From the NCBI RefSeq assembly GCF_013315695.1, contig NZ_CP054353.1: 64,000 bases of DNA; one strand, written 5' to 3'. The DNA comes from Escherichia coli (GTDB taxonomy: Bacteria > Pseudomonadota > Gammaproteobacteria > Enterobacterales > Enterobacteriaceae). The position numbers and the translations under genes were made by a program. Below, piece after piece: positions 17,722 to 18,576 of this stretch (the stretch's first letter is position 1; each line of letters opens with the position of its first letter). The notes under the pieces were generated by a model. The model was not told where the DNA came from, made no database searches, and saw only the letters and a list, made by a program, of their open reading frames with translations.

Positions 17722-18576
17722 TTAAATTTTTCCTTCACTACCACAGACGCCAATAATACGGGTTACGACTTCTTTCATGGCGGCCTTTGCGGGCTGCATA
17801 TAGTGGCGTGGATCATTTGCCGCAGGATTGTTGTAGAAATATCCTTTTAACGCATCGGCAAACGCAATTTTCAATTCTGTCGCGACATTCACTTTACAAA
17901 TACCGCGGCGAATACAGTGCTGAACGTCCTGTTCCGATAAGCCCGAAGCACCATGCAACACCAGCGGAATCTCCACTCGCTGACGAATCTGTTCCAGCCG
18001 CACAAAATCCAGTCGTGGTTCGTGCGTATATAAACCGTGTGCTGTTCCTATAGCTACCGCAAGGGAGTCAATTTGTGTGCGTTGGACAAACTCTGCCGCT
18101 GCGGTTGGTGAGGTATAAGCTGAATCTTTTTCATCCACCAGCAGATCGTCCTCCTGACCGCCAAGACGCCCTAGCTCGGCCTCAACGCTAACATCAAAGC
18201 GATGGCAAAAGGCAGTAACTTCTTGCACTCGCGCAATGTTGTCTTCAAATGGCAAATGGGAACCATCAATCATGACAGAACGGATCCCTGCGCGGACCTT
18301 GTTAAAAATGTCATCACACTCTTCATGATGATCGAGATGCAGGACTAACGGTAGGTTGTACTCGCGAGCCAGCGATTGTACTAACGAAATCAAACTTCCC
18401 ACGCCGCCATAACGATAAGTACCCGGTGTTCCCGCCAGCATAACGGGAGAGCGAAGTTGTGCAGCGCTCTCAACAACTACCTGTAAAGTTTCAAGGTTAT
18501 GAATGTTGAAAGCAGGGACGGCATATCCCTCTGACTGGGCTTTTTTCAGCATGTTTTTGCTTGAAATGATGTACAT
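17722..18576 (-). CDS. Class II ketose-bisphosphate aldolase, GatY/KbaY-like
   Basis: 284-aa translation [39 protein letters not shown]... aligns closely by eye with remembered GatY ([45 protein letters not shown] motifs). Confidence 0.9.

Follow-up and report, generated by a model that had tools for sequence, protein, structure and literature searches.

The D-tagatose cluster of Escherichia coli Nissle 1917 (EcN) was described as a stretch of 8.5 kb with eight genes, which is absent between accC and yhdT in K-12 (Ha et al., 2022; PMC9720028). On D-tagatose, the six minus-strand genes were induced more than 40-fold and the first three of them, including the aldolase gene tagY, more than 1000-fold (PMC9720028). 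The growth of EcN on tagatose was abolished by deletion of the six genes or of the kinase gene tagD alone, which was the only gene of the cluster to be deleted individually (PMC9720028). The six genes on a plasmid enabled K-12, BL21(DE3), and W to grow on tagatose, and tagatose growth was found to need pfkA and not pfkB (PMC9720028). The names tagY, tagABC, tagD, tagE, tagR, and tagK were assigned by Park et al. (2025; PMC12226905), who mapped the transcription start site 64 nt upstream of tagY and showed TagR to be a repressor that responds to tagatose. The tagYABCDE genes are a tagatose-induced, TagR-repressed operon with tagY in the promoter-proximal position; experiments by others have demonstrated that the cluster functions in growth on tagatose, that tagatose induces it, that TagR represses it, and that TagD and PfkA are needed. 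No later paper characterising TagY was found in the literature searched.

In our study, a stretch of 64 kb of E. coli DNA (the window) was analysed, and the gene at 17722–18576 on the minus strand was found to be tagY of this published cluster, a gene named in 2025. The preliminary description of the gene had not recognised the island as the EcN tag cluster, whose role in D-tagatose catabolism is published. The island lies between accC (10778–12127, plus strand), which forms the left boundary according to the RefSeq annotation of the identical region, and yhdT (20808–21050, plus strand), which forms the right boundary according to RefSeq. Its eight genes were present in the order of the published EcN-type tag island (tagYABCDE / tagRK). 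A 9-kb island query was 100% identical to annotated E. coli chromosomes, e.g., that of strain MSB1_4I, and the island was present at full length in 1419 of the 5426 complete E. coli genomes. The G+C content ranged from 0.42 to 0.50 in the island, whereas in the flanks it ranged from 0.51 to 0.555.

The operon starts with tagY, followed on the same minus strand by tagA (16796–17686), encoding the periplasmic sugar-binding protein of an ABC importer (Pfam Peripla_BP_4; RbsB-like, below the cut-off; PMC9720028, PMC12226905), tagB (15236–16735), encoding the transporter ATPase with two ABC domains (two stretches of Pfam ABC_tran; RefSeq), and tagC (14246–15235), encoding the permease (Pfam BPD_transp_2; RefSeq). 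The tagD gene (13262–14224, minus strand) encodes a PfkB-family D-tagatose kinase, which converts tagatose to tagatose-6-P (Tag6P) (Pfam PfkB); its product scored 413.9 bits on the NCBIfam TagKinase model, slightly below the cut-off of 420. The last gene, tagE (12219–13265, minus strand), encodes a DUF4432 protein that is aldose-1-epimerase-like (Pfam DUF4432, 348.6 bits), and its sole relative in the PDB was 3TY1, a 'hypothetical aldose 1-epimerase'. Because O6 is part of the ring when a ketohexose is in its pyranose form, TagE could be a mutarotase that turns tagatose from pyranose to furanose and thereby supplies the 6-kinase.

On the plus strand, tagR (18918–19748) encodes the DeoR-family tagatose-responsive repressor (Pfam HTH_DeoR and DeoRC; PMC12226905) and is followed by tagK (19780–20715 from the RefSeq start), which encodes a putative second PfkB sugar kinase (Pfam PfkB). 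The open frame of tagK begins 75 nt further upstream, at 19705, so that it and tagR overlap. The product of tagK scored 342.5 bits on the TagKinase model, under the cut-off of 420; it is 51% identical to TagD and the gene was induced only about 2-fold (PMC9720028).

The divergent control region between tagR and tagY occupies 18577–18917 (341 bp, assigned to no strand). Read in the window as in PMC12226905, it contained a CRP-like site at 18675–18690, followed by the −35 element TTTTTG at 18668–18673 and the −10 element TAGTTT at 18647–18652 of Ptag, all on the minus strand. The start site of tagY is placed at about 18640 (minus strand) from the published site 64 nt upstream of the gene, and the ribosome-binding site AGGAG was found 7 nt upstream of the tagY ATG. 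The operator tagO1 (18627–18645, minus strand) showed one mismatch to the published operator, and tagO2 (18603–18621, plus strand) was an exact match. Each operator occurred once in the 64-kb window, with 0 occurrences expected by chance. The tagO1 of the window reads CTTTCAAAATGAAAGTGAA, one base off the published EcN operator, which ends in GTAAA; tagO2 was unchanged.

A few other features of the window were also observed. In the stretch 28466–32020, the acrF reading frame stops early at 935 aa and is directly followed by insA (31302–31577) and insB (31496–31999) of IS1 and then by a small lipoprotein gene (32070–32291); the 3' end of acrF appears to have been removed by the IS1 insertion. 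At 8601–9431 (plus strand), between a yhdH/acuI-like gene and accB, an open reading frame of 276 aa with a TTG start was found, which is a 'hypothetical protein' in RefSeq; it had no NCBIfam match and a sub-threshold match to Pfam DUF1444 (16 bits vs. 23.8).

The tagY reading frame starts with ATG, contains 284 codons and a stop, and fills 17722–18576 exactly. The protein passed the cut-offs of the NCBIfam GatY subfamily NF009374 (528.9 bits; cut-off 383) and of the tagatose-bisphosphate aldolase equivalog TIGR01858 (476.5 bits; cut-off 443.55), and its sole Pfam match was PF01116 (336.6 bits; cut-off 25.5), whereas it stayed under the cut-off of the KbaY equivalog NF009375 (377.5 bits; cut-off 542). 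In pairwise alignments with no internal gaps, TagY was 63.4% identical to K-12 GatY and 56.7% identical to KbaY; the three proteins aligned gap-free over the 284 residues of TagY, and the C-terminus of KbaY was 2 residues longer. The best match among solved structures was KbaY/AgaY (PDB 1GVF, E = 5.6e-104). These scores and identities agree with the preliminary description, which had taken TagY for a GatY-type class II aldolase. With considerable confidence, we regard TagY as the Zn-dependent class II aldolase for D-tagatose-1,6-bisphosphate (TBP) of tagYABCDE, an operon that would have lost gatZ, and expect it to act mainly without a stoichiometric Z partner. We infer the actual activity of TagY, its necessity, and its independence from Z.

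The same description had noted that no GatZ/KbaZ gene accompanies tagY in the island, and our searches extended this to the whole 64 kb. When K-12 GatZ and KbaZ were searched by tblastn against all six frames of the window at E <= 10, nothing better than E = 1.1 was obtained; in the positive control with GatY and KbaY, tagY was the sole match. Among the island proteins, no member of PF08013 or TIGR02810 was found in the Pfam and NCBIfam scans, and pairwise BLASTP showed no similarity of TagE, or of TagY, to GatZ. A hidden or overlooked Z homologue in the island or elsewhere in the window was thus rejected. A heteromeric aldolase of the GatYZ/KbaYZ type would have its Z gene in the same operon or regulon, and no such gene accompanies tagY.

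The history of the operon was examined in a scan with one genome per GTDB species, in which 34 loci encoding TagY relatives were found and the island proteins, GatZ, and KbaZ were mapped onto these loci. The arrangement tagK-tagR / tagY-tagABCD was followed by tagE (DUF4432) in E. coli, Enterobacter ENT03, and Superficieibacter, and by gatZ in Serratia sp. H1w and Budvicia diplopodorum; in three Trabulsiella genomes and Enterobacter BIGb0383 it was followed by neither, and tagD abuts accC. The variable 3' ends lie at 12219–13265 (tagE) in the window and at 15400–16695, 15665–16936, 15398–15440, and 15315–15400 in the loci L011, L016, L006, and L008, respectively. The product of the Serratia gatZ scored 762 bits against a cut-off of 579, and 7 of the 7 checked Z-type residues were kept in both the Serratia and the Budvicia Z proteins. 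The Serratia cluster occupies the same panF-yhdT / accC site as that of E. coli, and this site is also shared by the Trabulsiella cluster. That an operon at a conserved site ends at its 3' side with gatZ, with tagE, or with neither is a new, if modest, comparative finding.

When TagY relatives were placed in a neighbour-joining tree, the Z-less TagY proteins of Enterobacteriaceae formed one clade, with Serratia and Budvicia (ABC importer and GatZ) as successive outgroups. Since the Z-less clade is nested among Z-linked TagY proteins, the absence of gatZ from the operon appears to be the derived state and the gene lost secondarily, for the direction of which a tree without bootstrap support is a weak basis. 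Only six positions had a residue that is shared throughout the Z-less clade and that no Z-linked homologue has. As these six differences are mostly conservative, they give no sequence sign of an adaptation of TagY to autonomy, and as a candidate signature of Z-independence they were set aside as uninformative. Z-less PTS-type tagatose operons were found in Erwinia endophytica and Zophobihabitans, where the aldolase, a PfkB kinase, IIBC, and IIA-HPr are followed by unrelated genes, and the Gilliamella loci contained a GatY-clade aldolase and no Z gene; for Trabulsiella, Zophobihabitans, and Gilliamella, the Z-less status refers to the locus within 10-kb flanks. Buttiauxella and Pseudocitrobacter contained the Klebsiella-like PTS-type arrangement gatY-tagKTH-gatZABCD. 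A kinase-regulator pair resembling tagK-tagR (~59% and ~40% identity) is located upstream of it.

It is possible, though rather unlikely, that TagY depends for full activity and stability on a Z protein supplied in trans, which would be the KbaZ of the aga operon or the GatZ of the gat operon. The full activity and stability of GatY and KbaY are reported to depend on Z, and with Z proteins already encoded by the host, gatZ could disappear from the operon. The genome of MSB1_4I, which matches the window with 100% identity across the 9-kb island query, contains an intact kbaZ at 642,080–643,360, ~119 kb from the island. At coverage of at least 80%, kbaZ was present in 5314 (98%) and gatZ in 5003 (92%) of the 5426 complete E. 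coli genomes; genomes lacking kbaZ thus number at most 112 against 1419 with the island, both figures being totals and not a per-genome cross-table. With kbaZ in 98% of the genomes and in this strain, help from Z in trans would therefore always be available, and tag+ E. coli strains almost always appear to encode a Z protein somewhere. The bona fide gatZ with intact Z-type residues in the orthologous Serratia and Budvicia operons and the few clade-specific changes in the Z-less TagY also agree with a dependence in trans. Against it stands the stoichiometry: tagY is induced more than 1000-fold, and without a mutation in agaR the aga operon stays repressed while tagatose is catabolised, therefore any Z protein would be far sub-stoichiometric. 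Z-less operons in several lineages also speak against it, and no cross-pairing of a Y protein with a non-cognate Z was found in the literature searched.

The balance tips slightly toward TagY working largely without Z. Enough TBP aldolase for growth of BL21(DE3) on tagatose requires a foreign GatY or a mutation in agaR, yet BL21(DE3) with tagYABCDE only was found to grow on tagatose (PMC9720028), which favours the autonomy of TagY. Autonomy is also favoured because Z-less GatY-clade operons recur in several lineages, and because the GatY of Bacillus licheniformis is fully active without Z (PMC10101011) and purified GatY and KbaY of E. coli retain reduced but measurable activity alone. Against autonomy, the nearest outgroup operons, those of Serratia and Budvicia, keep gatZ, and Tag6P itself might induce the gat operon. 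All heterologous hosts of the tag cluster experiments carry gatYZ and kbaYZ, so that GatY could perform the cleavage or GatZ could help TagY, and the inference of need or autonomy of TagY from these hosts is weakened. In K-12 MG1655, gatR is split by IS3E (L002, 1–1728). Disruption of gatR in K-12 makes gatYZ constitutive, and the K-12 hosts of the tag cluster probably express gatYZ constitutively. The gatC gene of K-12 MG1655 is a pseudogene (L002, 2922–4279). It is quite possible, if short of probable, that TagY is the first enterobacterial GatY-type aldolase without any Z, having become autonomous once gatZ was replaced by tagE or lost; if so, the pathway would be committed to the route of PfkA and aldolase and not to GatZ-dependent chemistry.

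There is very little likelihood that the DUF4432 protein TagE, though not homologous to GatZ, has replaced it functionally and is a newly recruited protein that pairs with TagY or stabilises it. The tagE gene does occupy, at the accC-yhdT site, the operon position in which Serratia sp. H1w has gatZ, but TagE is unlike GatZ in sequence and belongs to an aldose-1-epimerase-like superfamily, and both tagE and gatZ are missing from the tagY operons of Trabulsiella and Enterobacter BIGb0383. The end of tagD and the start of tagE overlap by 4 bp (13262–14224 and 12219–13265), which suggests a link of TagE to the kinase step, e.g., as a sugar mutarotase, rather than to TagY.

That TagY is primarily something other than a TBP aldolase, such as a C4 epimerase converting Tag6P to fructose-6-P (F6P) or an aldolase for another ketose bisphosphate, is highly improbable. 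Such a role could be suggested by the promiscuous C4-epimerase activity of E. coli FbaA in vitro, by the related GatZ/KbaZ family being epimerases, and by the alpha- and beta-proteobacterial ABC tagatose clusters, which have a Tag6P epimerase in place of the aldolase; the active site of TagY argues against it. In KbaY, Hall et al. reportedly assigned in 2002 the Zn ligands His83, His180, and His208, the catalytic Asp82, and a loop with Glu142, with Asn24 supporting Asp82. The equivalents in fructose-bisphosphate aldolase (FBA) are a three-His metal site and a supporting Asn. The D82, H83, H180, H208, E142, and N24 residues (1GVF numbering) were found to be identical in TagY, GatY, and KbaY; TagY was additionally aligned to 1GVF and 1RV8. 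All metal and catalytic ligands, whose loss would speak against a GatY-type enzyme, were thus retained in the alignment, and the active site of TagY looks fully competent. The KVNVATELK stretch of TagY aligned with KINTDTDLR of the Thermus aquaticus FBA, so that TagY, GatY, and KbaY contain Ala232 (NVATE) where FBA contains Asp (NTDTD). The NVATE/NTDTD difference (Ala vs. Asp) is a specificity signature which separates the Y-type from the fructose-bisphosphate aldolases.

The epimerase role that the preliminary description had kept open found no support, as TagY has the three-His site with D82 and the aldolase-characteristic Asn24 and not the His/His/Glu site of GatZ/KbaZ. The GatZ/KbaZ-type 4-epimerases are further marked by Cys20, Glu44, and Lys279 (GatZ numbering) and by membership of PF08013, whereas TagY showed no BLASTP similarity to GatZ and matched only PF01116 in Pfam. 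Epimerases of the AraD type, also called 'class II aldolase-fold', belong to a fold family different from PF01116. In vivo, F6P-to-T6P epimerase activity resulted from the over-expression of gatZ and kbaZ but not from that of gatY and kbaY, and TagY passed the TBP-aldolase equivalog cut-off of TIGR01858. The requirement of PfkA for tagatose growth also fits the aldolase. Tag6P can be converted to F6P by GatZ, and the need for PfkA cannot by itself separate the TBP route from this GatZ route because both need phosphofructokinase.

The published pathway, with TagY as a TBP aldolase, is the best-supported reading. The tag operon lies on an island that was acquired horizontally and is flanked by accC and yhdT; it is under repression by TagR, which tagatose relieves, and under the action of CRP. 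D-tagatose would be taken up by the TagABC importer and phosphorylated to tagatose-6-P by TagD, followed by phosphorylation to tagatose-1,6-bisphosphate by the PfkA of the host. TagY would then cleave the bisphosphate to DHAP and glyceraldehyde-3-P, with Asp82 deprotonating the C4-OH and the Zn held by His83, His180, and His208 polarising the DHAP enediolate. Loss of an ancestral gatZ from the 3' end would account for the missing Z subunit of the operon, with tagE in that position in E. coli, and the KbaZ or GatZ encoded elsewhere would provide at most an optional stabilisation of TagY.

The tag cluster allows growth on D-tagatose, a food sweetener, in E. coli of the B2 phylogroup, including ExPEC, AIEC, and Nissle 1917, and has already been made into an inducible expression system. 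The need for Z matters modestly for pathway engineering, as transfer from one host to another is simpler for a TBP aldolase with a single subunit, and it bears on the true role of GatZ and KbaZ, which have been shown to be epimerases besides 'chaperones'. The occurrence of three different operon ends at a single chromosomal site, with gatZ, with tagE, or with neither, is a natural experiment on the role of Z. The basic published understanding of tagY is unchanged by these results, which make a small point about a known system and do not describe a new kind of enzyme.

Among the known systems, EcN TagY (ECOLIN_RS18695 / HW372_RS02445) is the same gene, located in the same eight-gene accC-yhdT island with the same gene order and the same 341-bp control region containing Ptag, the CRP site, tagO1, and tagO2. 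Its identities to GatY (about 63–64%) and KbaY (56–57%) are the same as those of the window TagY, and the two clusters differ only in allelic changes, e.g., the one base in tagO1. GatY, encoded in the gatYZABCD operon of E. coli (tagatose-1,6-bisphosphate aldolase 2), resembles TagY in its 284 aa, the gap-free alignment, the same residues, and the same NCBIfam subfamily, and both act on TBP made by PfkA from tagatose-6-P, the cleavage by TagY being predicted. The gatY gene is directly followed by gatZ and serves PTS-dependent galactitol catabolism, whereas tagY has no Z gene in cis and is combined with genes for an ABC importer and for a tagatose kinase. KbaY (AgaY, 1GVF, aga cluster) has 56.7% identity to TagY and identical active-site residues; it differs in having the KbaZ partner in the aga regulon, and TagY remains under the KbaY equivalog cut-off.

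The operons of Serratia sp. H1w and Budvicia diplopodorum are orthologous (tagK-tagR / tagY-tagABCD), with TagY proteins of 73 and 72% identity, respectively, and end with a genuine gatZ, whereas that of E. coli ends with tagE. Like TagY, the GatY of B. licheniformis belongs to the class II TBP aldolases and to a tagatose pathway; it comes from a Gram-positive organism, is linked to a PTS, and is more distant in sequence. For this GatY, independence from Z has been demonstrated, whereas for TagY it is predicted. The ABC tagatose/galactitol clusters of Sinorhizobium meliloti and Agrobacterium tumefaciens share with the tag cluster a homologous ABC importer and a tagatose kinase, whereas they contain no TBP aldolase and lead to fructose-6-P through a GatZ-like Tag6P 4-epimerase.
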